Positions 551-50,230 of a DNA stretch of 55,574 bases are shown piece after piece. The stretch lies in NCBI GenBank assembly GCA_004321885.1, contig SCQK01000001.1:1-55574 (forward strand), given 5' to 3'. Under the pieces are notes generated by a model, which saw nothing but the letters and a program-made list of their open reading frames with translations, did no database searches and was not told where the DNA came from. The translations under genes were made by a program, and so were the position numbers. Position 1 is the stretch's first letter. Each line of letters starts with the position of its first letter. Source of the DNA: Patescibacteria group bacterium (lineage in GTDB: Bacteria; Patescibacteriota; Patescibacteriia; Magasanikbacterales; GWA2-37-8).

Positions 551-2239
551 ATGGCAATCAGCTCGCAACCCCAACCAGCCCAACCCACGATCGTGGAAAA
601 GAAAAAAATCCCGGTCGTTGTTTTTATTTTAGCCGGAATCGCGCTTCTGGCCGCCAGCGCTTCGGCCGGATATTGGCTGGCCACCTTAAAAACAGCCAAC
701 AATCCGGTTATTTTCCCAAATAACACGAAAACCGAATCAAAAACAACCACAAACCAGGATGCCGACTTTGTAAAATTTTCAACTCCGAAGCAAATAGACA
801 GCTTGCGCTTATTTATTCCGCAATCGCAAAACAAAAACGAGGCCTTTTGGCATGATGAATCGCAGACCGGCTATTATGATGTTGGTCGGTTGGAATACAG
901 CAACGAAACGACTGCTCCGACCTCTACCAAACTGATAATGACCATCAGCCAGGTGGACATGGGAGAAAACCATTACTTGTTCGCTGTGGCCCCGGATAAG
1001 GCCTACTTACTGACAAAATATTCTGATTATATTGACAGCGGAGCCACAGAACAAGAACTGCAAAAGATCGGGCTGCTTACCGATAAAATAAACATTGATA
1101 CCAGTTTTACTATTCCTTCTCTTGAGTTCCCGCCCCAACTCACCGGACCGGAAAAAAACCAAAAACTCTATTTTGTGAAGAAAACCGCTTTTGACGAAAA
1201 ACCTGTGATGAGCCAACTGATGTTTGAAGATAAAAACTGGGGCAAAATATACACCAGCACAAGCACGGACGGATTTTATATTGACAACGGCGAACCTTAT
1301 GTCGGTGTCTACGCTCCCCAGCTCAACTACCTGGCCAAAAAAATAATTATGAACGACGGCACAGTGAACGAAGATGGATATACCGAAACAAATGCGATTA
1401 GTATATGCGGAACGCGCAGTTTTGCCAATGTTGTTTATGATGGAGTAAATAAACAGGACTTGGTTGGGGTGGGAAAAACACCGACAGGAGATAAAATTTA
1501 CGCTTTAACCAACAGCCAGCACCCGCTCTTAAAAGATTTTTATGACACCGCCGCCTACTTCATTCCAGGCGGTGAAACAAAGATTTCCTATGATGATTTT
1601 TTAAAGGAGAAGCCGCTGTTATTCGCTTATGACCAGTTCAACCGACTAATTGAACTCACAAAAGTCAAATTCCAACCCATGGGTGAATGCGGCAAGCCGG
1701 TAATATATTTGTACCCGGAAAAAACCACGGCTGTATCAGTGAAACTGGCGCCAAACGGCGGATTTACCTACACCGAACCGGTATACGATAATGGCTGGGA
1801 AGTAATGGCCGAGCCCAACGGCGCTTTGACTGAAATCAAAACCGGCAAGGCCTACCCATATCTATTCTGGGAAGGAAATGGCAGTTCCAAATCCAGCGAG
1901 CCGAACAAAAAGGGCTTTGTGGTGGCCAAAGAAAACGTCAAAAAATTTCTTGACGAGAAACTGGCCTTACTGGGCCTAAACGCCAAAGAAAGCGCGGATT
2001 TTGAAGAGTTCTGGTTGCCGCGCATGCAGGAAAAACCATATTATTTCGTCACTTTCTACGGCAAACAAATGATGGACGAAATCGCGCCGCTGGCAGTAAC
2101 GCCAAAGCCGGATACTATCATTAGAATTTTAATGGACTTCACTCCTCTGGCCTCACCAATGGCGGTGGAGGAACAAAAACTGAGCGCCCCCGCCCGCCAG
2201 GGCTTTACTGTCGTGGAATGGGGCGGGGTTCTTCGCTAA
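551..2239 (+). CDS. hypothetical membrane-anchored extracytoplasmic protein (562 aa)
   Basis: Has an N-terminal TM helix (IPVVVFILAGIALLAASASAGYWLATL) and its own TTGCTT-N17-TACAAT promoter at ~497-525. I recognised no domain. Confidence 0.65.
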   Translation: MAISSQPQPAQPTIVEKKKIPVVVFILAGIALLAASASAGYWLATLKTANNPVIFPNNTKTESKTTTNQDADFVKFSTPKQIDSLRLFIPQSQNKNEAFWHDESQTGYYDVGRLEYSNETTAPTSTKLIMTISQVDMGENHYLFAVAPDKAYLLTKYSDYIDSGATEQELQKIGLLTDKINIDTSFTIPSLEFPPQLTGPEKNQKLYFVKKTAFDEKPVMSQLMFEDKNWGKIYTSTSTDGFYIDNGEPYVGVYAPQLNYLAKKIIMNDGTVNEDGYTETNAISICGTRSFANVVYDGVNKQDLVGVGKTPTGDKIYALTNSQHPLLKDFYDTAAYFIPGGETKISYDDFLKEKPLLFAYDQFNRLIELTKVKFQPMGECGKPVIYLYPEKTTAVSVKLAPNGGFTYTEPVYDNGWEVMAEPNGALTEIKTGKAYPYLFWEGNGSSKSSEPNKKGFVVAKENVKKFLDEKLALLGLNAKESADFEEFWLPRMQEKPYYFVTFYGKQMMDEIAPLAVTPKPDTIIRILMDFTPLASPMAVEEQKLSAPARQGFTVVEWGGVLR

Positions 2240-2245
2240 ACAAAT

Positions 2246-4012
2246 ATGCGACAAAACATCCTGATAGCGATAATCGCGGTCGCCGCTTTTGGCGCGGGAT
2301 TGTTTGGTTTCTATTTTGGCAGTTCAAATTTACCCCCCTCTAACTCCCCCCTTATCAAGGGGGGAGAAAACGAAACGACGCGAACACATTCTTCATACAT
2401 CATGGACAAATCAGTCTATGACGGATTTTCCCAAAGCACCAGCGATTTACCCCCCACTAGCTCCCCCCTTAGTAAGGGGGGAGAAACGATTTTTGCCGGG
2501 GTCGTGCCACACCATCTGCTCGTGGGTAAATATATCTCCGGATTTTTCGCCAAACTGCAAAAACAAAAACCCGAGGTCGTCGTGCTCATCGGTCCCAACC
2601 ATCCGCAAGCCGGCAGGAGCGCCGTCGTGAGCGGACTTTACGACTGGAACACGCCCTACGGCGAATTGCCGGCCGCGGAAAAAATAATTTCCGAATTGGC
2701 GCGGCAAAATCTTATCACCATAAATGATGGACTGCTCGGCAAAGAAAACAGCATTGGCGCGCTGGCGCCTTTTATCAAACAAACTTGGGGCAAAACCAAA
2801 TTCGTGCCGCTGATAGTAAAAAACTCCGCCAAACCGGAACAACTGCGAAATCTAACTGACGCGCTCGTAAAACTTTTGCCTAAAAATTCACTGGTTTTGG
2901 CCAGTGTGGATTTTTCCCATTACCTGCCAAAAGAAGTCGCCGACTTCCATGATGAGCTATCCATCAATGTTTTGGAAACCGGCGATGAAGAGCGCGTCGC
3001 GAAAATGGAAATAGACAGCCAGCCGAGCATCCGCTTTTTGCTGGATTACACGCGAGCGATTGGAGCGCGAAAATTCAATTTGCTTTATCACACCAACAGC
3101 GCGGATATAATGCATCAGCCCGAGCTGGCTGAAACCACCAGCCATGTTTTGGGGTATTTCATTGCCGGCGAACTGAGCGCGAGCAAGTCGGTTTCTTTGC
3201 AATTCTTCGGGGATATGATGCTGGAACGCAATGTGGCGCGGGCCATGGGCACGAGCGGTTTGGACTATTTGCTCGGCGACTTGCGCGGAAAAGAAAATAG
3301 ATTTTTTGCAGGCATGGATTTGATTGTGGCCAATCTGGAAGGCCCTTTCGCGCCAGCGCGGATTCAAACAAGTAAATCAATCGCCTTTCGTTTTGACCCG
3401 GCGCTGGCCGGGCAGTTGAAGAAATATAATTTTGGCGCCTTTTCTTTGGCCAACAATCATTTGCTGGACATGGGCTGGAAAAATTTGGACTTTACCAAAA
3501 AAATTCTGGAGCAAAACGACTTGGGTTACTTCGGCGACCAGTGGCGCGAAGGACCGGAGTACACACTGTTGGAGGGGTCGGTTGCTTTCATCGGCATCAA
3601 CAACACCGACCACAACTTGGATATGAAAAAATTGAAAGAGGCCTTGGACGAAGCCCGACATAACGCGGAATATGTTATCGTGATGCCGCACTGGGGAGTG
3701 GAATACCAGCAAACTTCCAACCAAAATCAGCGCGACTTGGCGCATTGGCTGATTGACAACGGCGCCGACGCCGTGGTGGGTAGTCATCCGCACGTGACGC
3801 AAGAAATGAAAATTTACAAAGACGCTCCGATATTTTATTCGCTCGGCAATTTCATTTTTGACCAATATTTTTCCAAAGAAACGCAAGAGGGGCTAAGCGT
3901 GGGGTTGATATTGCAAGATGGGAAAGTGAAAAAAATTTACCAGTTTCCCTTTTACGGTGAAAAATCCAAAGTCCGGCTGAAAGGGTCTGTCGCTGGCGAC
4001 AGACAAAATTAA
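2246..4012 (+). CDS. fusion protein: N-terminal MEMO1/AmmeMemoRadiSam-B-like domain plus C-terminal CapA/PgsA-type (poly-gamma-glutamate synthesis) metallophosphatase domain
   Basis: An N-terminal TM anchor is followed by the MEMO-like motifs VVPHHLLVG...VVVLIGPNHP. The C-terminal half carries CapA-like motifs (ANLEGP, SLANNHLLDMG, VIVMPHWGVEY, VVGSHPHV, GNFIFDQ). Two in-frame palindromic repeat insertions are present. Confidence 0.7.
   Translation: MRQNILIAIIAVAAFGAGLFGFYFGSSNLPPSNSPLIKGGENETTRTHSSYIMDKSVYDGFSQSTSDLPPTSSPLSKGGETIFAGVVPHHLLVGKYISGFFAKLQKQKPEVVVLIGPNHPQAGRSAVVSGLYDWNTPYGELPAAEKIISELARQNLITINDGLLGKENSIGALAPFIKQTWGKTKFVPLIVKNSAKPEQLRNLTDALVKLLPKNSLVLASVDFSHYLPKEVADFHDELSINVLETGDEERVAKMEIDSQPSIRFLLDYTRAIGARKFNLLYHTNSADIMHQPELAETTSHVLGYFIAGELSASKSVSLQFFGDMMLERNVARAMGTSGLDYLLGDLRGKENRFFAGMDLIVANLEGPFAPARIQTSKSIAFRFDPALAGQLKKYNFGAFSLANNHLLDMGWKNLDFTKKILEQNDLGYFGDQWREGPEYTLLEGSVAFIGINNTDHNLDMKKLKEALDEARHNAEYVIVMPHWGVEYQQTSNQNQRDLAHWLIDNGADAVVGSHPHVTQEMKIYKDAPIFYSLGNFIFDQYFSKETQEGLSVGLILQDGKVKKIYQFPFYGEKSKVRLKGSVAGDRQN
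2333..2366. repeat. palindromic repeat family D (CCCCTCC...CCCCTTATNAAGGGG...GGAGGGG), in-frame copy
   Basis: ccccctctaactccccccttatcaaggggggag; translates to LPPSNSPLIKGGE inside the 2246-4012 ORF. Confidence 0.8.
2451..2483. repeat. palindromic repeat family D, in-frame copy
   Basis: cccccactagctccccccttagtaaggggggag; translates to LPPTSSPLSKGGE inside the same ORF. Confidence 0.8.
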
Positions 4013-4116
4013 AATAGGGCCGAGATGTCTAACAACACCCGGCCCCGTAACAAACACTGACTGCCTCCCTTCTTCGTCGCCCCGTAATGGTGGCGATTTT
4101 GTCGTTGAGCGAATGA

Positions 4117-5337
4117 CTACGGCTTCGGCGTGGACTTCTCGGCCTCCACCACCTGGCGCGCCTTCTCCTCCGCCGCTTTGCGCACCTTCTCCGCCTCCGC
4201 TCTGATCTGTTCGGCTTTCTCGTCCGGATCGGACGAGATTTTCACACCCGCCCAGCCGCCCGTCACGTCACGATTCCGCCGCTTGGGCAACGGAGGCGGC
4301 TTGCGCTTGTCCTCGGCCGGTTGTACTGGCCCTGTGGGGTCGTCCTTGGGCGCTACCTTGTCCGCCTCCGCGCAGACATTATTGATGGCCTTGTCCACCG
4401 CTGCCACCTCGTCTGCACTGTCTTTCGGCGGTAGCTCGGCTATCATGCGCAGACCGGTCGGCGTACACGCCTCATCGAACTCGGCCACTGCCTCGGGCAC
4501 TCCCTCACCTGCTTTTTCCTCACCCGCGACCATCTCGTCGGTCACCACTACCTCGCCAGGCGCAGGCTCGTTCTTGACTGACTCTGGCCCTAGCCAGCCA
4601 TATTTCACGACCACTGTGTCCCAGACCTGCATCAGCACCGTCACTTCCAGGTACTCGACAAGAACCTTGGGCTCCAGCAGGGGATGGCTCAACAGAACCT
4701 TATCATCCCAGGTCTGGCCGGCCCTTCCCAAGCGCATGGAGTGCCTCATCACCTCGGCTGTCAGAGCCGGCGGCAACTTGGCGACCTGCTCGGCGTTAAG
4801 CAAGCCGATCGCCTCAACCACCTCGCAGTGAGTATTCTTGCCGGCGCTGACATCTTCCAGCAAGTCCAACTCCAGTATGAGGTCAACCAGCTGGTAGGCG
4901 AGTCGCTTGTGCTCTTTGGTGTCCTTCTCCCGCCAACCGCTCTGGAAGAGCAACTCCTGGATGAGTCGGGCCGGCAGGTAACGAACGGCATCATCGGCCG
5001 GCATAGCCTTGACGATCTGGTCCGGGTTCGTATCCCCCACTTCCAATGCCCCCTCCAGGCCCTCGCCTGCCCACTGCCAAGACTGGCGGCAGACAGTCGC
5101 ACGTGCACCAGATACGGCGCAAGCCTTGAGAATGTCTGCCCGTCTTCCCGGCTGGTCAGCCAACCCCTCCATTATGGCCATGGGCGGAAACTTGGCCACG
5201 ATGTCGCTCGTGGTGAGCACGGTCGCTCCGGTCACGAGCGCTAGGTCCAGCGCGCTGGCCAACAGCTTCTCCGCTGGCCTCAGGTCCCGGGGTTTCTTTG
5301 TCCCAATCGGAACGCTCTCTCCGCTTTCCTTCATCAT
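4117..5337 (-). CDS. hypothetical protein (406 aa) in a GC-rich islet
   Basis: Strong RBS (AAGGAGAAA before ATG). GC content is well above the flanking DNA. The product is acidic with an A/E/K-rich C-terminal low-complexity tail. I recognised no family. Confidence 0.6.
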   Translation of the reverse strand: MMKESGESVPIGTKKPRDLRPAEKLLASALDLALVTGATVLTTSDIVAKFPPMAIMEGLADQPGRRADILKACAVSGARATVCRQSWQWAGEGLEGALEVGDTNPDQIVKAMPADDAVRYLPARLIQELLFQSGWREKDTKEHKRLAYQLVDLILELDLLEDVSAGKNTHCEVVEAIGLLNAEQVAKLPPALTAEVMRHSMRLGRAGQTWDDKVLLSHPLLEPKVLVEYLEVTVLMQVWDTVVVKYGWLGPESVKNEPAPGEVVVTDEMVAGEEKAGEGVPEAVAEFDEACTPTGLRMIAELPPKDSADEVAAVDKAINNVCAEADKVAPKDDPTGPVQPAEDKRKPPPLPKRRNRDVTGGWAGVKISSDPDEKAEQIRAEAEKVRKAAEEKARQVVEAEKSTPKP

Positions 5338-5417
5338 TTTCTCCTTCGTGTTTCTTTCATTTCTCTTGGACCCACCACGGGCCCAATCTGAACTTCATCC
5401 TGAACGCGGCAAAAAAT

Positions 5418-5663
5418 CCCCTACAGGGCCTGTCGCCGAATACGCTTTCGTGACGAAATTACAGAATTCCGAGACAAAATTGTTGAATAATTTTGCGGCT
5501 TACCTGGAAGGTAAGCCAAAAATTTGAAGCGAACTTAAAAATTTCTGCGGGCTTCGCAAGTCAAAATAAATTTTGACTTGTCTCAGCCCTTGAAATTTTG
5601 AGACAATTTTGGCCGGAATTCTGGAATTGCAGTAGAAATGGTATTCGGCGACAGGCCCCTACA
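5418..5663. repeat. hairpin-dense ~246-bp element bounded by an 18-bp perfect inverted repeat (MITE-like or structured RNA)
   Basis: Left end cccctacaGGGCCTGTCGCCGAATAC and right end GTATTCGGCGACAGGCCcctaca. Interior palindromes include caagtcaaaat-a-attttgacttg, gcttacc...ggtaagc, gtctcag...ttgagac and an imperfect cagaattccgagacaaaattg / caattttggccggaattctg pair. Confidence 0.6.
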
Positions 5664-5928
5664 ATAAAAACGAAAGGGATCCTTCCACCGCCCCGAGGCG
5701 GGGCCCCGCTGCGGCGGTGGCGCTTCGCTCAGGATGACAGTAAATAAGTCAAGGCTGCGAAAAAAATTATAAAGAACTATATAACATTACACAGGATGCT
5801 TGATTTGTCAAGCTCCGCCGCTCTATTTTTGGCTTAGGCCAGCCGCAACTCGGCTGTAACCAAATGGGGTTGACTATCCCCCGCCAAACAGGGTATAATA
5901 TATCTGTTTTTACTCTCACTTATTTCGT

Positions 5929-6321
5929 ATGGAAAAGACCAAAGCCGGTTTCGCGCCGGAATTTCTAAAAAAAATAAAACAGATGCTTTCCGATGAAAAA
6001 GCCAAGCTGGAAAGCGAGCTGGCCAAATTTGCCAAAAAAAATCCCGAGGAAGAAGGCGACTATAAAAGCTCGTTTCCGGATTACGGCGACAAAGACGACG
6101 AGAACGCGGCCGAGGTGGCCGAGTACGCCGTGAATTTATCTTTGGAAGACAACCTGGAAAAAACCCTGCGCGACGTGCGCTCGGCCCTGAAGCGCCTGGA
6201 AAAAGGCGACTATGGTTTTTGCAAATACTGCCACAAACCCATAGAAGAAAAGCGCCTGCTGGCCCGCCCCACTTCCAGTTCCTGCATGGAATGCAAAAAA
6301 ATAATCAAGCAGGAAGTTTAG
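5929..6321 (+). CDS. dksA: DksA/TraR family C4-type zinc-finger protein
   Basis: Coiled-coil N-terminal region plus a CxxC-N17-CxxC finger (CKYCHKPIEEKRLLARPTSSSCMECKK). A TATAAT element lies upstream at ~5893. Confidence 0.7.
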   Translation: MEKTKAGFAPEFLKKIKQMLSDEKAKLESELAKFAKKNPEEEGDYKSSFPDYGDKDDENAAEVAEYAVNLSLEDNLEKTLRDVRSALKRLEKGDYGFCKYCHKPIEEKRLLARPTSSSCMECKKIIKQEV

Positions 6322-6322
6322 T

Positions 6323-6829
6323 ATGTTACAAAAAATCCGCTGGAGGAGTTTGCTCACTGGCGGATTTTTTTTAATTATTGACCAATTTTTGAAATGGTTT
6401 TCTTTAGACGCGTGGACAGAAAAAAAGATTGGCTGCCTCGGTTTACCCCCACACCAAAATTTTTGGTGTGGGGGCTGGGAACCATTCGCCAATTATGGCG
6501 CGGCTTTTGGCTTGCCCGTGCCCAACCGGGTGATTGTCATTCTGACTATTCCCGCCCTGTTTCTGATTGGGTATCTATTCGCGAAACAAAGACCCCCTCT
6601 TAATCTCCCCCTTAGCAAGGGGGAGGGGATTCGTTTATTTGCGCTCGCAATTTTATTTTTCGGAGCGCTGTCAAACCTGATAGACCGGCTGGCCTATGGA
6701 TACGTGGTGGATTATCTGCGAGCGCTTACGGGAATAATAAATTTGAGCGATATTCTGATTGTATTGGGATTATTATTTTTTTTGTTTGGTAAAGGGATTC
6801 CTCTCCCGACTAAGTCGGGATCGGAATGA
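6323..6829 (+). CDS. lspA: lipoprotein signal peptidase II
   Basis: Four TM segments with the motifs NYGAAFGLP and DRLAYGYVVDYL. Contains an in-frame family-D repeat (RPPLNLPLSKGEG). Confidence 0.75.
   Translation: MLQKIRWRSLLTGGFFLIIDQFLKWFSLDAWTEKKIGCLGLPPHQNFWCGGWEPFANYGAAFGLPVPNRVIVILTIPALFLIGYLFAKQRPPLNLPLSKGEGIRLFALAILFFGALSNLIDRLAYGYVVDYLRALTGIINLSDILIVLGLLFFLFGKGIPLPTKSGSE
6593..6628. repeat. palindromic repeat family D, in-frame in lspA
   Basis: ccccctcttaatctcccccttagcaagggggagggg. Confidence 0.8.
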
Positions 6830-6832
6830 CAG
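6803..6832. repeat. palindromic repeat family B core (CCCGACTAAGTCGGG) plus the ggaatgacag motif shared with family A
   Basis: tcccgactaagtcgggatcggaatgacag at the lspA 3' end / comM start. Confidence 0.7.
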
Positions 6833-8352
6833 TATGTATGTTTTGTAAATTGAACTCGGGCTCGGTGATGGGTTTGGAATGCCAGCCCGTGGAAGTGGAG
6901 GTTGACATCAGCAAAGGTCAGACCGCCTTCGGCATCGTGGGCCTGCCCGACGCTTCCATCAACGAAGCGCGCAGCCGCATCCACTCGGCCATTAAAAATT
7001 CCGGCTATGATTATCCGTTTAATTTTCGCATCCTAATAAATCTGGCGCCGGCCAGCGCGCGCAAAGAAGGCACGTCCTATGACTTGGCCATGGCCGCGGG
7101 CATGATCGTGGCCAGCGGCGAATTGCGCGCCGATCTAAGCGACGCCATCCTGACCGGCGAACTGGCCTTAGACGGCGCCCTGCGGCACGTAAACGGCATC
7201 TTGCCGCTCTCCCTGTTCGCCAAAAACCGCGGACTGAAAAGAATCTTCCTGCCGGAAATGGACGCGCCCGAAGCCGGACTGGTGGACGGACTGGAAATAT
7301 ATCCGGTGAAAAATTTGCGCCAGTTACTGGAACACATTGAGGGCAAAACGTTTATCGCCCCTTACGCGCGTACGGAAAATCCGAACAATTATCGCGCGCC
7401 CGAATACGAACTGGACATGGCGCTCATCAAAGGCCAGGAGTTCGCCAAACGCGCGCTGGAAATCGCGGCCAGCGGGGCGCACAACATACTGATGAGCGGG
7501 CCGCCCGGCTCGGGCAAGACCCTTTTGGCGCGCACCCTGCCTTCCATTTTACCGCGCCTTACTTCCGACGAAGTATTGGAAGTGACAAAAATTTATTCCG
7601 TGGCCGGCCTGCTCCAAAGCAGTTTCATCACCGAACGTCCGTTTCGCTCGCCGCACCACACGGCCTCGGGCGTGGCCTTGGTGGGCGGCGGCCGGTATCC
7701 GCGGCCCGGCGAAATATCCCTCTCGCACCGCGGCGTGCTTTTTTTGGATGAGTTCCCCGAATTCGCTCGCTCGGTTTTGGAAAACCTGCGCCAGCCCCTG
7801 GAAGACGGAACCGTTACCGTTTCCCGCGCCGAGGGTTCGGTCGCTTTTCCGGCCCGCTTTATTCTGGTGGCCAGCCAAAATCCCTGTCCCTGCGGTTTTT
7901 ACACCGACCCGGAACGGCAATGCACCTGTGGCAGCGCGCAAATTTTGCGTTACCGAAAAAAAATCAGCGGCCCCTTGTTGGACCGCATTGATTTGCACAC
8001 CGAGGTGCCGCGAGTGAAGTTTGAAAAACTGGCCTCGGACGAACTGGCCGAGTCATCGGAAAAAATACGCCTGCGCGTGGAAGAAGCGCGCGAACGGCAG
8101 AACAAAAGATTCCGCGGCTTGCCCGTGACCGCCAATAGCGAAATGAGGGGCGGTGAAATCCGCCAGTTCTGCAAACTGGACGACCCGTCAATTGATTTGT
8201 TGCGCGCGGCCATGACCCGCATGCGCCTGTCGGCGCGCGCCTACAATCGCGTTCTCAAACTCGGCCGCACCATCGCCGACCTGGCCAAGAGTGACGACAT
8301 CAAGCTGGAACACGTGGCCGAAGCCCTGCAGTATCGAGCAAAAAGCGAATAA
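6826..8352 (+). CDS. comM: YifB/ComM family Mg-chelatase-like AAA+ ATPase
   Basis: N-terminal Lon-like domain, Walker A GPPGSGKT, sensor motifs, and a C-terminal domain conserved along its full length. Confidence 0.9.
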   Translation: MTVCMFCKLNSGSVMGLECQPVEVEVDISKGQTAFGIVGLPDASINEARSRIHSAIKNSGYDYPFNFRILINLAPASARKEGTSYDLAMAAGMIVASGELRADLSDAILTGELALDGALRHVNGILPLSLFAKNRGLKRIFLPEMDAPEAGLVDGLEIYPVKNLRQLLEHIEGKTFIAPYARTENPNNYRAPEYELDMALIKGQEFAKRALEIAASGAHNILMSGPPGSGKTLLARTLPSILPRLTSDEVLEVTKIYSVAGLLQSSFITERPFRSPHHTASGVALVGGGRYPRPGEISLSHRGVLFLDEFPEFARSVLENLRQPLEDGTVTVSRAEGSVAFPARFILVASQNPCPCGFYTDPERQCTCGSAQILRYRKKISGPLLDRIDLHTEVPRVKFEKLASDELAESSEKIRLRVEEARERQNKRFRGLPVTANSEMRGGEIRQFCKLDDPSIDLLRAAMTRMRLSARAYNRVLKLGRTIADLAKSDDIKLEHVAEALQYRAKSE

Positions 8353-8958: not shown

Positions 8959-9361
8959 ACAAAAAAGATACCCAATTACCTAAGGTATCTTCCTGCTTAT
9001 ATTAAAAGTATAGCACAAATTACCCTTTCCGTCAAGTAGGGCGGCTAAATTTAGGCGGCCATGCGCTCCAGTTTGCGCTCGCTCGGAGCATGGCGGGCGT
9101 GGCCGCCCTTGCTGGCTATCTGCCTTTTTTTCTCGGCGCTCATGGATGCGAATCCTCGCCTGGATACCGTGGTCATATAGTTTTTAATCCATACTTATTT
9201 AGTATGATATTATTATTATACAACAGCGCGCGGCCCTGTCAACCCCGCAATTTGAATTTTTCGTGTTCTGTTATATAATACTCACCAAATCCCAAGCCCC
9301 AATGACCAATTCCCAAAATGATTATTGGCCATTGGGATTTGGCCATTGAGATTTTTATTTT

Positions 9362-12184
9362 ATGCCTCTGCCTTTTCTTAAAAAACGCGAATACGGACGC
9401 GTGGATGAGAAGCCGCGCCGCCGGCTTTTGAATAAAAAAACCCTTAAAATTTTGATTTTGTCTGTTGTTTCGGCCGGACTCTTGGGTTTTGTGGCCCTCA
9501 CTGTCATCGCGGCTGTCATCACGCGCGATTTGCCGGACCCGGGAAAATTAAGCGAGCGTCCGGTGGCCGAAAGCACGAAAATATACGACCGCACCGGCCA
9601 GCATCTGCTCTATGAGATCTACGAGGGCCAGAAGCGCACTATGGTGGAGCTAAACCAAATCGCGGACTTTGCCAAAAAGGCCGTCATCGCCATAGAGGAC
9701 AAGCGCTTTTACGAACACAAGGGCGTACGTTGGATTAGCATTCTGCGCGCGGGCTTTAACAACCTCATCGGCCGGCGCACCGGCGGGGGCGGGGCCTCCA
9801 CCCTGACCCAGCAATTCGTAAAAAAAGTGGTGGTGGGGGACAAACGCACGATTTTTAGAAAAATAAAAGAGGCGGTGATGGCCATCCGCCTGGAAAAAAA
9901 ATACACCAAGGACCAGATTTTGAAATTATACCTGAATGAAATCCCCTACGGCTCCACCAACTATGGTATAGAAGCGGCCAGCCAATCGTATTTTCGCAAA
10001 TCAGCCAAAGACCTGGACCTGGCCGAGTCAGCTGCTCTGGCCGCGATTTTGCCCGCACCCAGCCGGTATCTAAACGACCTCAATGCCCTGCGCAGCCGGC
10101 GCGACATCGTGCTGAAACTAATGCAAGAGCAGGGGTATATAAACGAAGAGCAGATGGAAGAGGCGCAAAACAAAGCCCTGCGCCTGTACCGCAGCGCCGG
10201 CATTTTGAACGCCCCGCATTTTGTGCTGTACGTAAAACAACTTTTAGCCGATCAGTATGGCGAAAAAAAACTTGATACCGGCGGATTTAAGGTTATTACC
10301 TCGCTGGATTTTGCCAAACAAACATTGGCGGAAAAAATCATCAAAGAGCAGGGCGATAAATTCGCTTCCAGCTCCAATGCCAACAACGCGTCCTTGGTGG
10401 CCATAGACCCAAAGACCGGCCAAATCCTCGCCATGGTGGGCTCACGCGACTTCAACAACGAAGCCATAGACGGCCAGTTCAACGTGGCTGTGCTGGGCAA
10501 GCTCCAGCCCGGTTCTTCATTCAAGCCATTTGTGTATACGGCCGCTTTTGAAAAGGGTTACACGTCAGATACCGTGCTCTACGATGTATCCACCAACTTT
10601 GACAGGCGCGTCGGCGGCAAGTACCAGCCGAAAAATTACGACGGCAAAGAACGCGGACTGGTGACCATGCGCAAGGCCCTGCAAGGCTCTTTGAATATCC
10701 CGGCGGTAAAAACCCTGTATTTGGCTGGCATAAACTACACCCTTGATTTTGCCAAGCGCTTTGGCTATACGACTTTGAGCGAGAAAGCCGGATTGTCATT
10801 GGTCTTGGGCGGCTCGGAAGTAAATTTATTGGAGCACGCGAACGCCTACGCGACTTTGGCGAATAGCGGCGTGTACCACAAACCCGTCAGCGTGCTGAAA
10901 ATCACGGACCAGACCGGCGGCGCTGTGTATGAATGGCAGGCGAGCGAGGGCGACGAGGCAATCTCGCCGGAGCTGGCGGCCAAAATTTCCAACGTGCTTT
11001 CGGATAATGTCAGCCGCGCTTACATGTTTGGAACAAAAAACAACCTGGTTTTGCCCGGCCGGCCCGTGGCCGCCAAAACAGGCACCACGCAAAACAGCTG
11101 GGACGCCTGGACAATGGGCTACACGCCATCGCTCGCCGCGGGCGTCTGGGTAGGCAACACGCCCAAGCACTTGCCTATGAAAGCCGGGGGCAATACATTA
11201 GCCGGAAGCATTTGGAATAAATTTATGAGCGAGGCCTTGCAAGGCGCAGCCGTGGAATTTTTTCCATCCCCGCCGGCCAGTACCGCGACCAAACCGATTT
11301 TGCGCGGGGGTGAAAGCGGCATCACGCTCGCGATAAACAGCGCCACGGGCCGCATCGCCATTTCCACCACGCCTCCGGATTTGATTGTGAACCGCACCTA
11401 CCTGCCGCCGCATGATATTTTGCATTATGTGGTCAAAGACGACCCGAACGGCCCGGGTCCCCTAAACCCCTATGACGACCCGCAATATGAAAACTGGGAA
11501 ACGGCGCTCACTGACTGGATAGGCCGCCAGCAAAAAGCCGGACGCGAGCTGACCCTGGCCGAACCGCCCAGTGAGTATGATACTCCGGGCGACCCGGCGC
11601 TCTCGCCTGTCGTGCAAATAATTACTCCGGCCACCAGTTCCACTCTGACCTCGCGGCAAATAGACATACAGGTTAGCGCCTCGGCTCCGCGCGGGGTGAG
11701 TTTGGTGACGTATAAAATAGACGGGATAAAAATCGGCTCGGCCAGCCAACCGCCGTTTAATTATTCCTGGTACGCTAAAAATTTGGCCATGGGGCCGCAC
11801 ACCTTGGAAGTGACGGCCCAGGACGACCAGAACAACTGGACAGTAGCCGCGGCGGATTTTGATTTGCAGGCCGACTTTGATCCGCCAAGCTTTGAGTGGT
11901 TTGATGCTTCGCCTTTGGCGCTGAAAGCCGAGGACTGGCCGCGTGTCATGCTGTTGGACCCGTTCCGCTGGAATGAAACAAAAGAAATAAAAATTTACTT
12001 GGTGCCGGCAAACGGGGTGACCAAGCTGATTTACACTTTCAATCACGATGACACTCTTTTCAATGGAAAACTTTCCCTCACCTGGAAGACCTACCCGGGC
12101 GCCGGGCAGTATGATTTGAAGGGCGTGCTGACAGACAGCGCCGGCCGCGCCGCGGAGCGCGTCTTGCGCGTGGTGACGGAGTAG
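9362..12184 (+). CDS. mrcA: class A penicillin-binding protein (transglycosylase + transpeptidase) with a C-terminal Ig-like extension
   Basis: GT51 motifs (EDKRFYEHKGV, RxGGGASTLTQQ), transpeptidase motifs SSFK, SLN and KTGT, and a TM anchor. A TGnTATAAT extended -10 lies upstream at ~9273. Confidence 0.9.
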   Translation: MPLPFLKKREYGRVDEKPRRRLLNKKTLKILILSVVSAGLLGFVALTVIAAVITRDLPDPGKLSERPVAESTKIYDRTGQHLLYEIYEGQKRTMVELNQIADFAKKAVIAIEDKRFYEHKGVRWISILRAGFNNLIGRRTGGGGASTLTQQFVKKVVVGDKRTIFRKIKEAVMAIRLEKKYTKDQILKLYLNEIPYGSTNYGIEAASQSYFRKSAKDLDLAESAALAAILPAPSRYLNDLNALRSRRDIVLKLMQEQGYINEEQMEEAQNKALRLYRSAGILNAPHFVLYVKQLLADQYGEKKLDTGGFKVITSLDFAKQTLAEKIIKEQGDKFASSSNANNASLVAIDPKTGQILAMVGSRDFNNEAIDGQFNVAVLGKLQPGSSFKPFVYTAAFEKGYTSDTVLYDVSTNFDRRVGGKYQPKNYDGKERGLVTMRKALQGSLNIPAVKTLYLAGINYTLDFAKRFGYTTLSEKAGLSLVLGGSEVNLLEHANAYATLANSGVYHKPVSVLKITDQTGGAVYEWQASEGDEAISPELAAKISNVLSDNVSRAYMFGTKNNLVLPGRPVAAKTGTTQNSWDAWTMGYTPSLAAGVWVGNTPKHLPMKAGGNTLAGSIWNKFMSEALQGAAVEFFPSPPASTATKPILRGGESGITLAINSATGRIAISTTPPDLIVNRTYLPPHDILHYVVKDDPNGPGPLNPYDDPQYENWETALTDWIGRQQKAGRELTLAEPPSEYDTPGDPALSPVVQIITPATSSTLTSRQIDIQVSASAPRGVSLVTYKIDGIKIGSASQPPFNYSWYAKNLAMGPHTLEVTAQDDQNNWTVAAADFDLQADFDPPSFEWFDASPLALKAEDWPRVMLLDPFRWNETKEIKIYLVPANGVTKLIYTFNHDDTLFNGKLSLTWKTYPGAGQYDLKGVLTDSAGRAAERVLRVVTE

Positions 12185-13345: not shown

Positions 13346-13564
13346 GACAGTTGGATTAAATATATTTATATAATAGTAATAATAATACTGTGGAAAAAGG
13401 GGATAAATGTCAAGAGTGTTTTATCTTAGCCAATTTTAAGGAATTTGTCTTGTGGATAATTTTTTACAACCTGTGCGAGAAAGTTGATAAGTTTTACCCG
13501 CTGGTTCAGACCCTGTGGACAATTATATTTTTTATCCACAACTTATCGGCCAGCCGTTCACAGG
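13346..13564. other. candidate oriC: DnaA-box cluster plus AT-rich DUE between dnaA and dnaN
   Basis: Perfect boxes TGTGGATAA (13450-13458) and TTATCCACA (13531-13539), near-boxes tgtggaaaa (13388) and tgtggacaa (13514), and the AT-rich run aatatatttatataatagtaataataata at 13353-13387. Confidence 0.6.
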
Positions 13565-17712: not shown

Positions 17713-18996
17713 CTACTGCAGTAGGTCGTCAAGTTCGCATGCAAGCAGGGCTGATTTGTTTAATAATATCTGCTCATTTGGATTTAATTTGTCCGCTGTC
17801 ATTCTTATAACTTTGGTTGCAATTCCATTCCCGAGCATTACGTTGTTTGTTTTTTTTAGGTAATCCTCATTTTTTTTATTAAAAAGCGAGGCATACTTTT
17901 TTAATTTTTTTTGAGTCGCGGAGTTTGAACGGGCGTCATTGCCGGAGAATTCAATTTTTTTATCAATTTTTTTATCTATTTCTATTGGCAGGTCTCCTTC
18001 TCTAAATTCAATCCAGTAGTCGCTGGTGGCATAAATAATTTTAACAGCGCTACCTTCTTCCGTCGCGTATCTAAAAATAAAAGAAAAATTTTCAGTGTGA
18101 AAATCCTGGTGAATGGAAATTTTTTCCAGTTCTTTAACGGTGTGGATTTCATAATCGTCTAAAAGCTGCCGATAACTTTCACGCCAATTTTTTAGCCAGT
18201 TTTTGATATAGGTCTGATTCACGAATAATGGCGAAAGATCGTTATTGAGATTTTCATCACTCACCCTATTCATTTGTATGGTCAGTTTATCAAAAAGAGT
18301 TCGCACACCCTTCACCTCAATATTTTTCGCCGTTAGGTAATCAAAATCCGGCACGATTTTTTTGCTCATGTACCAAAGTAAATCATAAATATCCCGCCCC
18401 TTTTCTTCATAAATAGCGTCTCCTACGCCGCGCGTGCCGCGCAAAAAAATAGCGGCTAATTTGCTGGCCATCAAGGCGGACATGTTGTAAGTTAAGATGA
18501 CAAAAGAAAGCTGGCCATGGTTTATTGGGCGCCGATCAGTGACTGTCTTTGGAGCGCTAAAATGGTTGAGGTCTATTTTTACGTGCACCTGATTGGAGGG
18601 ATGGCCGAGATTGAGTTCGTTGCCGACATGAAATTTCAAAAGCAATCCGCGGCCATTGTTGATCTTAGTGGTCAGAAAATCGGAATTGGCTCCATACGTA
18701 TTTATGAAATATTTTTCAATTTCATTTTTTAATTTTTCCAAGAATTTATCCGTTACTTCGCCAATAACTTCAAAATCCAAATCCTCGGACATGCGGTCAA
18801 GTCCGTGGATTACGCGCAGAGCCGACCCGCCATACATAGTCCATTGGCTGTACTGGGCGTGGTGATAAATAAAATTGAGAACATAATACTGCAGTTCTTC
18901 TTTGAGAGAGACGCGCCGCGTCATGGCGTCTAGGCCGCCATAGGCGGCAAGGTCATCAAGCTTTTTTTTCAGAACCATTGTTATTTGTTCGCTCAT
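17713..18996 (-). CDS. abiEii: AbiEii/AbiGii-family nucleotidyltransferase toxin (type IV TA / abortive infection) with a ~130-aa C-terminal extension
   Basis: MYGGSALRVIHGLDRMSEDLDFEV is the DUF1814 NTase motif. Overlaps abiEi by 4 nt. Confidence 0.8.
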   Translation of the reverse strand: MSEQITMVLKKKLDDLAAYGGLDAMTRRVSLKEELQYYVLNFIYHHAQYSQWTMYGGSALRVIHGLDRMSEDLDFEVIGEVTDKFLEKLKNEIEKYFINTYGANSDFLTTKINNGRGLLLKFHVGNELNLGHPSNQVHVKIDLNHFSAPKTVTDRRPINHGQLSFVILTYNMSALMASKLAAIFLRGTRGVGDAIYEEKGRDIYDLLWYMSKKIVPDFDYLTAKNIEVKGVRTLFDKLTIQMNRVSDENLNNDLSPLFVNQTYIKNWLKNWRESYRQLLDDYEIHTVKELEKISIHQDFHTENFSFIFRYATEEGSAVKIIYATSDYWIEFREGDLPIEIDKKIDKKIEFSGNDARSNSATQKKLKKYASLFNKKNEDYLKKTNNVMLGNGIATKVIRMTADKLNPNEQILLNKSALLACELDDLLQ

Positions 18997-19607
18997 ACGA
19001 ATTTGCTGATTAGTGAATAAAATTTTTTCTGCTCTCCCGCCTCCATTTCATCAATATCAATTCGCAATTCCTTAGTTAACTTTTTAATCCCAGCCAATTT
19101 TTTGATGCCGCGGAACTGGCGAGTTCGGAAATACAATAAATCAAACAAGGCCTTGGCCGGAGAAGCGATAAAAAAATCAAATTTGCCTTTGAATAAAGAA
19201 AAGCCGGAAAATGATTCGTTATTTATGGACTGGTAAGCAAAATTACCGGCTTTTGATTCGTAGTCTCTCGTAACCTTGGGAGTAACCGAAGTAATGGTGT
19301 GTATCGCTTCGGTGGCCAGATTATAATACTGCAAAGCGGCCCAGGAACTTACATATGATGGGCTGCGGATAATATTTGCGAGAAAAAAAGAATACGAGAT
19401 ATCTAACCGGTTTTTTTCAAAATAATCATCCGAAACATATAGGCCCCTTTTGAGCCGCAGAATTTCCTTGTATTTCAAAAATCGGCTGATGTAGGTGTCG
19501 GTCGTGGTTTTGGCGAGCCCCATCTGGCTGGCGAGCTGGTAGATAGTATCTTTGCTGAAGTGGGGCAATGAATTTAGCTGTATTAAGAGGTTTTTCTTGC
19601 TTTTCAT
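18993..19607 (-). CDS. abiEi: AbiEi-family antitoxin / transcriptional regulator (type IV TA)
   Basis: N-terminal wHTH-like region, ~200 aa, directly upstream of and overlapping abiEii. A TTGACA-N17-TACGAT promoter lies upstream on the minus strand. Confidence 0.75.
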   Translation of the reverse strand: MKSKKNLLIQLNSLPHFSKDTIYQLASQMGLAKTTTDTYISRFLKYKEILRLKRGLYVSDDYFEKNRLDISYSFFLANIIRSPSYVSSWAALQYYNLATEAIHTITSVTPKVTRDYESKAGNFAYQSINNESFSGFSLFKGKFDFFIASPAKALFDLLYFRTRQFRGIKKLAGIKKLTKELRIDIDEMEAGEQKKFYSLISKFV

Positions 19608-50168: not shown

Positions 50169-50230
50169 TGTGGATAATTGTGGATAAGTCTGTGCATAAG
50201 TGGTGAATTTGTGGGGATATGTGGTTAACG
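50169..50230. promoter_or_regulatory. DnaA-box cluster distant from dnaA
   Basis: Two perfect TGTGGATAA boxes (50169-77 and 50179-87) plus tgtgcataa and tgtggggat, bracketed by two family B copies. An AT-rich stretch follows at ~50440-50590. Confidence 0.5.

Follow-up and report, generated by a model that had tools for sequence, protein, structure and literature searches.

A GC-rich gene for a Pfam-less helical protein at conserved loci of Patescibacteria, with a composition that may be actively maintained

Genes of outlying composition are routinely taken as recent horizontal transfers whose signature is expected to fade. The described form is the amelioration islet of Lawrence and Ochman, a single gene whose GC content, GC content at third codon positions (GC3), oligonucleotide makeup and codon usage are unlike those of its genome. 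We analyzed a gene of this appearance, encoding a 406-aa protein, in a 55,574-nt stretch of patescibacterial (CPR) DNA, hereafter the window; as in such islets, its homologs look native in a distant GC-rich phylum. By sequence, the protein is closest to an uncharacterised family exemplified by PIP60171.1 (Candidatus Uhrbacteria, COX00_04575), MBI5515876.1 (Deltaproteobacteria bacterium) and HMR74501.1 (Polyangiaceae bacterium); no function has been described for any member, and Pfam models none of them. A further point of reference is bldA/TTA in Streptomyces, a case of codon-mediated control.

The minus-strand gene that an earlier note on this DNA had placed between a CapA-fusion gene and dksA was found there, in the following layout:

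4117-5337, minus strand: coding sequence of the 406-aa protein, a member of a Pfam-less family (CPR-dominated clade A); the GC-rich block is this coding sequence
5340-5344, minus strand: Shine-Dalgarno sequence GGAGA, 5' of a tandem ATG ATG, read from the sequence
5870-5899, plus strand: predicted sigma-70-like promoter of dksA, TTGACT-18-TATAAT, 11/12 matches
5929-8352, plus strand: native flank, comprising dksA (5929-6321), lspA (6323-6829) and comM (6826-8352)

The neighbor on the side away from dksA is a CapA/Memo fusion (PF09587 + PF01875), and dksA itself, divergent from the GC-rich gene, encodes a DksA-type zinc-finger protein. The ribosome-binding site, the acidic body (D+E 17% versus K+R 13%) and the lysine/glutamate/alanine-rich tail, which forms a C-terminal helix, were likewise as previously described. 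Because the spacing of GGAGA suits position 5334 better, the second ATG is probably the true start, giving a product of 405 aa; the gene caller likewise picks this product.

The foreign-looking composition claimed for the gene was significant on every windowed statistic. Relative to a window GC of 0.500, the gene has a GC of 0.623 (GC1, 0.681; GC2, 0.428; GC3, 0.762), in line with the claim of a ~60% GC gene with GC-rich third positions in a ~50% backbone. Both GC and GC3 were the highest among the 44 ORFs of the window (z about 2.5; mean GC 0.505, sd 0.047; mean GC3 0.589, sd 0.070), and across 272 sliding windows of 1200 nt the gene gave the highest GC (z 2.86) and the highest tetranucleotide distance (z 4.5). 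GC-normalised tetranucleotide usage of the gene gave a correlation of r = 0.26 with the remainder of the window, compared to 0.70-0.86 for 23 other genes, GC-rich ComM included. Codon choice set the gene apart as well: 70 of its 85 Glu, Lys and Gln codons end in G (0.82), versus 0.32 in the flanking genes (Fisher p 5.8e-19) and 0.50 in the runner-up ORF of the window. General synonymous-codon likelihood was just mildly atypical (z -1.2). GC3 was elevated evenly along the length of the gene, and the edges of the GC-rich block fell at the start and stop codons, within one 60-nt bin.

Two ordinary accounts of this composition were ruled out: a highly expressed gene with optimal codons, given that trigger factor uses GAA/AAA and that ComM (GC3 0.70) retains the native signature, and an overlapping antisense constraint, given that dS is not strongly lowered. 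The sharp compositional step at each gene end would also be expected if a foreign GC-rich fragment had been joined into a CPR contig during assembly or by contamination. This artifact, named in the earlier note as a possible refutation, is vanishingly improbable. An independent Logan assembly (SRR8426592) was 100% identical over window positions 1904-5454, across the left junction between backbone and GC-rich DNA; the adjacency of the gene to dksA recurs in two relatives from two sources (loci L077 and L078); and the ribosome-binding site and the sequence upstream are unbroken and host-like. In Uhrbacteria, the ortholog was detected in 97 assembly-index blocks, with identical context at every place read.

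A word-index protein search with the 406-aa protein returned the gene itself and nothing else, and profile versions gave few matches. Pfam, NCBIfam and PADLOC had no match to the protein, Pfam had none to any of 58 family members, and PHROG searches gave insignificant matches alone (best E 0.012). No homologs were found in viral contigs, phage records or plasmid records. Exhaustive HMMER searching of 1.84 billion representatives, standing for about 15 billion proteins, nonetheless recovered 154 representatives at E <= 1e-3 (40 at <= 1e-10), the best non-self match being P0002 (37% identical, E 1.8e-31). The gene is thus not the orphan it had been called, and the remote-homology search proposed earlier revealed a family. 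We regard it as nearly certain that the gene is real and belongs to this Pfam-less family.

A neighbor-joining tree divides the family into two clades with 100% bootstrap each: a Polyangiaceae-type clade and clade A, which is dominated by CPR bacteria. The 406-aa protein scored 289 bits with the clade-A HMM versus 123 bits with that of clade B. Clade A also includes P0031, a deltaproteobacterial protein from a 73%-GC background whose GKxAxPGF-type insertion is also present in the CPR protein P0008. This distribution implies that the gene once passed between CPR bacteria and a GC-rich lineage, and about 20 clade-A clusters without known genomic context could be GC-rich donors.

Recent acquisition from a GC-rich donor, not yet ameliorated and with each CPR lineage having received its own copy, would account for the outlying GC, GC3, tetranucleotides and codon choice. 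It would also fit the GC-normalised tetranucleotides, which resemble those of Polyangia-like backgrounds (r 0.55) more than those of the genome that carries the gene, and the abundance of the family in genomes of Polyangiaceae type, in which the gene matches its surroundings in composition. However, this account is largely refuted by synteny, and we consider it highly unlikely. In L077 and L078, the closest homolog is divergent from dksA-lspA-comM, and PBP1 and dnaN follow farther out, matching the window; in L077, the order and orientation of the three genes relative to the family gene are kept. Between the window and this relative, protein identity is 71% for ComM, 70% for DksA and 65% for PBP1, whereas the family proteins share 36%, and synonymous divergence has reached saturation (pS 0.73-0.79). 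At a second, Uhrbacteria-type locus, the arrangement FecR / family gene / DUF2207 is shared by six orthologs (L006, L010, L079, L081, L082 and L083). Since the best non-self homolog is just 37% identical among the representatives searched, there is no plausible recent donor. No integrase, tRNA or repeats were found bounding the coding sequence in the window, where the sole mobile feature is a separate, host-like MITE. A genome scan with the CapA-Memo fusion yielded just CapA relatives of 50-56% identity, without conserved synteny.

From these comparisons we conclude with high confidence that the gene is resident and syntenic, not recent. It already adjoined dksA before the organisms of the window and L077 diverged. 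Of the earlier reading as horizontally acquired DNA, the foreign look and the implied past exchange with a GC-rich lineage survive; the recent insertion, an islet of acquired DNA, does not. At the Uhrbacteria-type locus, vertical descent rests on synteny and not on resolved phylogeny, because trees inside clade A are star-like. The DUF2207 tree is star-like too, so that congruence between the two is uninformative; pairwise distances of the family and DUF2207 proteins correlate (r 0.88), and the trees show no supported conflict.

Between two close Uhrbacteria species, the family gene has a dN/dS of 0.22, indicating purifying selection, a dS of 0.31 versus 0.40 in the neighboring gene, and a dN about twice that of the neighbor. 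Six assemblies of one species differed by two SNPs only. These values bear on two processes that could act on a resident gene. In recurrent allelic replacement, the resident copy would be overwritten through in-gene recombination with GC-rich bacterial alleles, possibly from CPR hosts, which would refresh the GC-rich dialect, inflate ortholog divergence and leave the flanks native. CPR bacteria are generally known as DNA-uptake-proficient episymbionts, the GC-rich block ends at the boundaries of the coding sequence, orthologs are far more divergent than flanks (36% versus 65-71%), and P0031 nests in the CPR-dominated clade with its shared insertion. Nevertheless, replacement is unlikely: a close GC-rich donor allele was not found for any CPR copy, homologous recombination requires high nucleotide identity where protein identity is only 30-37%, the gene co-diverges with its flanks in the two Uhrbacteria species, and the family and DUF2207 distances correlate, with no supported conflict between the trees. 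GC-biased gene conversion at a recombination hot spot, in which biased repair raises GC3 in a diversifying, often-recombining gene, would suit the fast protein evolution and the even elevation of GC3; by analogy, adhesin genes and repeats with a higher GC are found in Mycoplasma. It is decidedly improbable, though, as conversion tracts should reach into the flanks, yet the boundaries are the start and stop codons. Moreover, selection on the protein is purifying rather than diversifying overall, the six assemblies hold nearly no polymorphism, and a GC3 shift of +0.08 to +0.36 is far above reported recombination-associated effects in bacteria.

This shift was measured across CPR hosts: family-gene GC3 exceeded flank GC3 in 8/8 CPR loci, and the G-ending fraction of Glu, Lys and Gln codons was 0.60-0.95 in the family gene versus 0.22-0.56 in the flanks. 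In Polyangia-like and deltaproteobacterial loci, by contrast, the G-ending fraction did not differ between family gene and flanks. The family gene favors GAG/AAG/CAG whatever the host GC. For example, comparing the window with L077, GC3 tracks the host in ComM (0.70 versus 0.50) but not in the family gene (0.76 versus 0.84). The excess was small in L081 (0.59 versus 0.51), as if amelioration can proceed. Because each of the eight CPR copies retains the GC-rich dialect, recency does not explain the anomaly. The compositional set-point of the family gene is, with high confidence, independent of host GC, and the persistence of the G-ending style despite complete synonymous turnover points to gene-specific maintenance.

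Of the possible causes that could hold the GC-rich style, selection on the transcript is the likeliest, with a structured mRNA affecting stability or translation rate. In a local-window folding test against synonymous-codon shuffles, minimum free energy (MFE) was below expectation in 7/7 CPR orthologs (z -2.0 to -3.6). Mean z was -0.9 for 14 control CPR genes (Mann-Whitney p 6e-5), and 4 homologs from outside the CPR averaged -0.5. Two of the 14 controls also reached z <= -2, as did the Polyangia-like homolog L002 (z -2.8), and we regard the excess of mRNA structure in CPR orthologs as moderate. That selection acting on RNA structure or on codon choice maintains the style is a tentative explanation, to which we give somewhat less than even weight. 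A more specific proposal, that CPR bacteria keep an anciently shared myxobacterial-type adaptor gene at GC3 of ~0.73-0.84 (0.59 in one lineage) in hosts of 46-59% GC by transcript selection, acting through a structured, stable or slowly translated mRNA, or by C34-tRNA codon control, is speculative and rather doubtful. If true, it would document a protein-coding gene that passes down vertically and yet withstands amelioration over long times. Its radical version, in which the dialect fits a GC-rich host where the message is used, has no support.

The inverted-repeat element that had been grouped with the gene is real and has the following parts:

5421-5663, no strand: MITE-like element with terminal inverted repeats, target site duplication (TSD) and hairpin, outside the GC-rich unit
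5421-5425 and 5659-5663: 5-bp direct repeats CTACA, read from the sequence
5426-5449 and 5635-5658: terminal inverted repeats, 24-nt arms, 92% complementary

Its RNA fold is strong (-110.6 kcal/mol, z -11.4), and it contains a conserved internal hairpin; the adjacent region 5660-5760 had no significant structure (z 0.0). Conserved arms are also present in L034, L044 and L057, with TSDs of TTTAA/TTTAA in L034 and TAACA/TATCA in L057, compared to CTACA/CTACA in the window; the L044 copy is without a clear TSD. Similar sequence occurs in at least five low-GC metagenome contigs, related copies lie in low-GC contigs without the family gene, and the terminal repeat was absent from viral contigs. The Logan contig ends inside the left arm. 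A match to Rfam MIR7533 (38 bits; gathering score, 230) was discarded as reflecting only a long hairpin. With its host-like GC, its own 5-bp TSD and its copies in contigs without the gene, the element does not form part of the GC-rich unit as had been supposed; judged by these features, it is an independent MITE insertion unrelated to the gene.

The predicted protein has the following regions, all on the minus strand:

4582-5286: conserved all-helical N-terminal domain, about residues 18-252, from family alignments and AF2
4930-5286: first half of this domain, residues 18-136, internal duplication
4582-4929: second half, residues 137-252, internal duplication
4309-4581: acidic linker rich in proline and predicted to be poorly ordered, about residues 253-343 (pLDDT 27-43, single-sequence model)
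4270-4308: basic proline motif KRKPPPLPKRRNR, residues 344-356, from clade-A comparison
4135-4227: C-terminal K/E/A-rich helix, residues 371-401, from model and family alignment

The halves of the helical domain are ~115 aa each, with two 'TxxD(I/V)(V/I)..P..(I/L)(M/V)..L' units per half, and align to each other in hhalign with a probability of 95.5% (E 1.6e-8). AF2 on a 23-sequence alignment predicted 17 helices (pLDDT 78, pTM 0.73); the single-sequence model (pLDDT 45) was unusable. Nearly invariant positions are hydrophobic residues and one Arg, and family alignments of this domain contained no conserved residues of catalytic type. The linker could not be aligned across the family. A core [K/S]PPPLPx(1-3)[K/R] lies at or near the C terminus in 12/27 clade-A proteins. 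Foldseek searches of PDB and BFVD yielded no significant match, nor did a sequence profile run against PDB. We read the region as encoding a cytoplasmic non-enzyme, with a ~235-aa duplicated all-helical domain, a disordered acidic proline-rich linker, a basic PPPLP peptide and an extra helix. Such a protein may act as a protein-protein adaptor or scaffold whose C-terminal proline motif docks a partner, a possible function that we hold tentatively, at a little below even chance.

Taken together, the reading that we put at even odds is that of an anciently shared, long-resident and fast-evolving gene for a non-enzymatic helical-repeat adaptor whose GC-rich composition is actively maintained, probably through selection on its transcript. 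Here, at conserved loci in eight or more CPR lineages, the family gene has remained an outlier, while neighboring genes have re-equilibrated to each host. If selection maintains the state, composition-based calls of horizontal transfer in CPR genomes may mis-time the event, synonymous sites of tiny-genome symbionts can face strong gene-specific selection, and the gene offers a tractable system for what a GC-rich structured message gives a cell. The family also connects CPR bacteria with Polyangiaceae-type and deltaproteobacterial genomes, which may bear on the question of which organisms serve Uhrbacteria-like and Magasanikbacteria-like lineages as hosts or partners, and it adds a new helical domain, built by duplication, together with a conserved, putative proline docking motif.

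Among known systems, we compared the protein with death-fold domains (CARD/DD/DED/PYD) and bacterial death-like domains (bDLD; Kaur et al., eLife 2021, PMC8195603). Pfam searches on the query and 58 members and the PDB profile search gave no Death/CARD/DED/PYD/bDLD match; no fusion or operon with a conflict-system NTPase, protease or effector was seen, the gene standing alone in every CPR locus and PADLOC being negative. The neighboring element resembles MITEs in its 24-nt terminal repeats, 5-bp TSDs, non-coding content, long hairpin fold and copies at unrelated sites of other genomes, and differs in its single copy within the 55-kb window and an extra ~70-nt internal hairpin. To the PIP60171.1/MBI5515876.1/HMR74501.1 family, the protein is linked by significant HMMER similarity across the entire N-terminal domain and by the clade-A architecture of helical domain, acidic/proline linker and C-terminal PPPLP basic motif. 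Its identity to the members is no more than 25-37%, and it carries the extra C-terminal helix, a coiled-coil-like extension with counterparts only in the syntenic homologs P0002 and P0176, plus P0007. By functional analogy with bldA/TTA, a codon style unlike its own genome could tie translation of the gene to particular tRNAs; however, GAG/AAG/CAG are not rare here (22-56% usage in flanks), and we know of no regulatory tRNA for this dialect. Relative to a Lawrence-Ochman islet, the gene is syntenic in relatives with saturated synonymous sites, is without mobility genes, and is anomalous in all eight CPR loci examined, not following host GC. Because synteny outlasts the saturation of synonymous sites and the anomaly recurs at all eight loci, plain non-amelioration fails as an account of this gene.

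The anomalous composition of the minus-strand gene that the earlier note had called foreign-looking proved real and statistically strong by windowed GC, tetranucleotide, and purine-ending codon statistics. The gene (hereafter, the family gene) was present as described, and its ribosome-binding site, acidic body, and K/E/A-rich terminal helix were as claimed, as were the CapA/Memo and DksA neighbors and the inverted-repeat element:

4117-5337, minus strand: family gene, ORF of 406 aa
5421-5663: MITE-like element, 243 bp, with 24-nt terminal inverted repeats and perfect 5-bp flanking repeats (CTACA)

The family gene was 62.3% GC (GC1/GC2/GC3, 0.68/0.43/0.76) versus 50.0% for the window, and its GC and GC3 were the highest of the window's 44 ORFs. 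Among 272 windows of 1200 nt, it had the top GC (z 2.9) and the maximal tetranucleotide distance (z 4.5). After normalization for base composition, the correlation between its tetranucleotide usage and that of the remaining window was r = 0.26, versus 0.70 to 0.86 for 23 other genes; ComM, itself GC-rich (GC3 0.70), still reached 0.80. The contrast was sharpest in two-fold purine-ending codons (GAG 35/41, AAG 23/31, CAG 12/13). Comparison with the contig bore out unusual codon usage for these Glu, Lys, and Gln codons, with a pooled G-ending fraction of 0.82 versus 0.32 in flanking genes (P = 5.8e-19) and ≤0.50 in every other ORF of the window, but not for synonymous codons as a whole, whose global likelihood was only mildly low (z -1.2). 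The limits of the GC-rich block are the start and stop codons of the gene. An independent Logan assembly matched positions 1904-5454 at 100%; the left junction is therefore no single-assembler artifact, which argues against the assembly chimera raised in the note.

Remote-homology search contradicted the description of the gene as an orphan. A word-index protein search returned the self match only; Pfam, NCBIfam, and PADLOC gave no match to the 406-aa protein, and PHROGs gave insignificant matches only. Exhaustive HMMER searching of 1.84 billion cluster representatives recovered 154 homologs at E ≤ 1e-3, 40 of them at ≤ 1e-10. All share an N-terminal domain of ~235 aa, beyond which lies an acidic, proline-rich segment that is not alignable; none of 58 members checked carried a Pfam domain, and the viral contigs, phage records, and plasmid records searched held no homolog. 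A neighbor-joining tree resolved two clades, each with 100% bootstrap. Clade B (~140 clusters) is Polyangiaceae wherever named, and the family gene is compositionally ordinary on its contigs (64-72% GC). Clade A (~29 clusters) includes the query. Genomic context was obtained for nine clade-A clusters: eight are candidate-phyla-radiation (CPR) bacteria, and the ninth, P0031, lies in a 73%-GC "Deltaproteobacteria bacterium" MAG, where it is compositionally native. The family is common to Polyangiaceae-type and CPR bacteria, and its CPR members are fast-evolving and fixed at conserved loci.

The window's host belongs to the Patescibacteria, its CapA-Memo fusion being nearest to those of a "Patescibacteria group bacterium" and a "Candidatus Magasanikiibacteriota" MAG. 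The best homolog of the query (P0002/P0176, 36% identical) lies on contigs L077/L078 in the exact arrangement of the window, divergent from dksA-lspA-comM with PBP1 and dnaN further out; proteins of the window and the L077 organism are 71% (ComM), 70% (DksA), and 65% (PBP1) identical. A C-terminal coiled-coil-like extension was found only in the query, P0002, and P0007. One conserved locus, a FecR-domain gene followed by the family gene and DUF2207, houses six other clade-A clusters (P0167, named Candidatus Uhrbacteria, and P0010, P0004, P0029, P0008, and P0026). Between two Uhrbacteria species, dS was 0.31 for the family gene versus 0.40 for a neighbor, and dN/dS of the family gene was 0.22; here the gene co-diverges with its neighbors and is under purifying selection. 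Its GC3 exceeded that of the flanks in 8/8 CPR loci:

GC3 of the family gene and its flanks in CPR loci
Window: gene 0.76, flank 0.62
L077: gene 0.84, flank 0.48
L006: gene 0.77, flank 0.45
L010: gene 0.73, flank 0.44
L079: gene 0.76, flank 0.60
L081: gene 0.59, flank 0.51
L082: gene 0.84, flank 0.70
L083: gene 0.84, flank 0.71

This excess and the synteny in CPR relatives contradict a recent acquisition: the anomaly is conserved, not recent, and recent horizontal transfer of the family gene is very unlikely. G-ending Glu/Lys/Gln codons made up 0.60-0.95 in CPR family genes versus 0.22-0.56 in flanks (significant in 7/8 loci); Polyangia-like and delta loci had no such difference between gene and flanks. 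In low-GC hosts the family gene was also a tetranucleotide outlier (r 0.36-0.39 versus 0.63-0.80), with the exception in that comparison of a short 567-nt ORF of L077 (0.47). Small GC3-rich outlier genes (0.65-0.87) also occur at L006 12895-13209 and 13305-14075, L077 548-958, and L079 695-1387; 3/4 have no Pfam domain on record, and the 256-aa gene of L006 resembles the family gene in tetranucleotide signature (r 0.63). The phenomenon may be wider than one family.

An old, pre-divergence import that merely failed to ameliorate is untenable. Native genes of the window and L077 are synonymously saturated (pS 0.73-0.79), with third-base identity of 0.24-0.38 at conserved four-fold codons, and their GC3 follows the host (ComM 0.70/0.50, PBP1 0.67/0.53, DksA 0.61/0.48), whereas that of the family gene is higher in the AT-richer genome (0.76 versus 0.84 in L077). 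Likewise, GC3 in L006 and L079 was 0.48/0.62 for an aminoacyl-tRNA synthetase gene and 0.77/0.76 for the family gene. What is needed, therefore, is either a force specific to the gene or its repeated replacement. Recurrent replacement by alleles from GC-rich donors would account for the CDS-exact boundaries and the high divergence of the family gene; we consider it unlikely, since no donor-like allele is present in the databases searched (1.84 billion cluster representatives) and vertical descent is uncontradicted by the data. GC-biased gene conversion, which would raise GC3, fits those boundaries poorly and is highly improbable. High-expression codon optimization is also unlikely, given that GAA/AAA are the codons used by trigger factor and ComM.

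We compared summed local mRNA folding energy (120-nt windows) with synonymous-codon permutations that kept protein and codon counts:

Folding z scores relative to synonymous permutations
CPR orthologs (n = 7): -2.0 to -3.6, mean -2.9
CPR control genes (n = 14): +0.9 to -2.3, mean -0.9
Non-CPR homologs (n = 4): +0.7 to -2.8, mean -0.5

All seven CPR orthologs folded more stably than their own shuffles, including L081, whose GC3 is nearly host-like, and they differed from CPR controls (Mann-Whitney P = 6e-5), of which the lowest was the CapA fusion, bearer of palindromic inserts. This excess is moderate but consistent support for selection on transcript structure, which would favor G/C at silent sites. 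CPR copies keep the GC-rich, G-ending dialect and an over-structured message whatever the host composition. We tentatively favor selection on the transcript as what holds this dialect, over replacement, conversion, or recent transfer.

The repeat does not belong to the GC-rich unit: element 5421-5663 has host-like GC and represents a separate MITE insertion. In L077, nothing of the kind lies between the family gene and dksA. A metagenome scan with its 18-nt terminus gave 60 loci, most of them unrelated 24-nt matches in GC-rich soil contigs. True element sequence, with conserved termini GGGCCTGTCGCCGAATAC, occurred in five low-GC, groundwater-type contigs (35-48% GC):

L034 1140-1302, L044 975-1148, and L057 1262-1426: copies with both arms and a conserved inner hairpin
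L021 and L031 (Hainich groundwater): copies of the arm where the contigs end

Target duplications were TTTAA/TTTAA (L034) and TAACA/TATCA (L057). Copies elsewhere measure about 165-175 nt; that of the window contains an additional inner hairpin of ~70 nt. The Logan contig stops within the left arm, as expected where sequence is a repeat. On three counts it is wrong to read the region simply as an orphan islet of recent acquisition with a repeat attached. A short patch of 77% GC at 5677-5736, located between the MITE and the promoter of dksA and containing palindrome CCGAGGCGGGGCCCCGCTGCGG, had no significant structure versus shuffles. A 42-nt palindromic element, ATTTACCCCCCTCTAACTCCCCCCTTATCAAGGGGGGAGAAA, reminiscent of Rickettsia palindromic elements, is inserted in frame within coding sequences of the window three times, adding peptides such as LPPSNSPLIKGGE and LPLSKGEG:

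2328-2369 and 2445-2486: copies in the CapA-Memo fusion gene
6588-6629: copy in lspA

Other features of the window and compared loci were as follows:

17713-19607, minus strand: AbiEi/AbiEii type IV toxin-antitoxin pair
13389-13540 and 50169-50228: clusters of DnaA-box-like sites

The window is most AT-rich around the toxin-antitoxin pair (~40% GC, 15.5-19.5 kb); this stretch, the third-strongest tetranucleotide outlier of the window, resembles a classical acquired islet more closely than the GC-rich gene does. DnaA-box-like sites (TTATCCACA, ≤1 mismatch) numbered 25 versus 9.7 expected; the first cluster, between dnaN and dnaA and close to the GC-skew minimum, is probably oriC, and the second adjoins two tRNA genes. 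In L077, an 820-nt noncoding stretch (9401-10223) 3' of the syntenic homolog comprises a GC-rich 3' UTR with a terminator hairpin at its end, then three TTGTATAGACTA..TATACAAA motif copies and several DnaA-box-like sites. Upstream of the Uhrbacteria ortholog, L006 about 9020-9490 looks by eye like a putative RNase P RNA gene (GGAAAGTCCGAGC...).

An AF2 model of residues 1-262 (23-sequence alignment) was all-helical, with 17 helices (pLDDT 78, pTM 0.73). Profile-profile comparison identified the N-terminal domain as an internal duplication (N versus C half, probability 95.5%, E 1.6e-8), with a weaker signal for a four-fold repeat unit. Near-invariant positions are hydrophobic residues and one arginine, which makes an enzyme role unlikely; no signal peptide or membrane segment was apparent in the 406-aa sequence. 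The gene is monocistronic, lacking a recurrent operon partner, in every CPR locus examined. In 2/3 Polyangia-like loci it lies 3' of a gene for a zinc-ribbon protein (L003 6432-7973; L014 139-1695) with a long proline-rich region and a conserved N-terminal zinc ribbon (39% identity over 94 aa, E 2e-15), a candidate functional partner in that clade. With low confidence, our best functional guess is a docking adaptor or scaffold. A tail motif, [K/S]PPPLPx(1-3)[K/R], at or near the C terminus of 12/27 clade-A and 21/116 clade-B proteins, resembles, in our reading, SH3 ligands of class II or WW ligands of the PPLP type.
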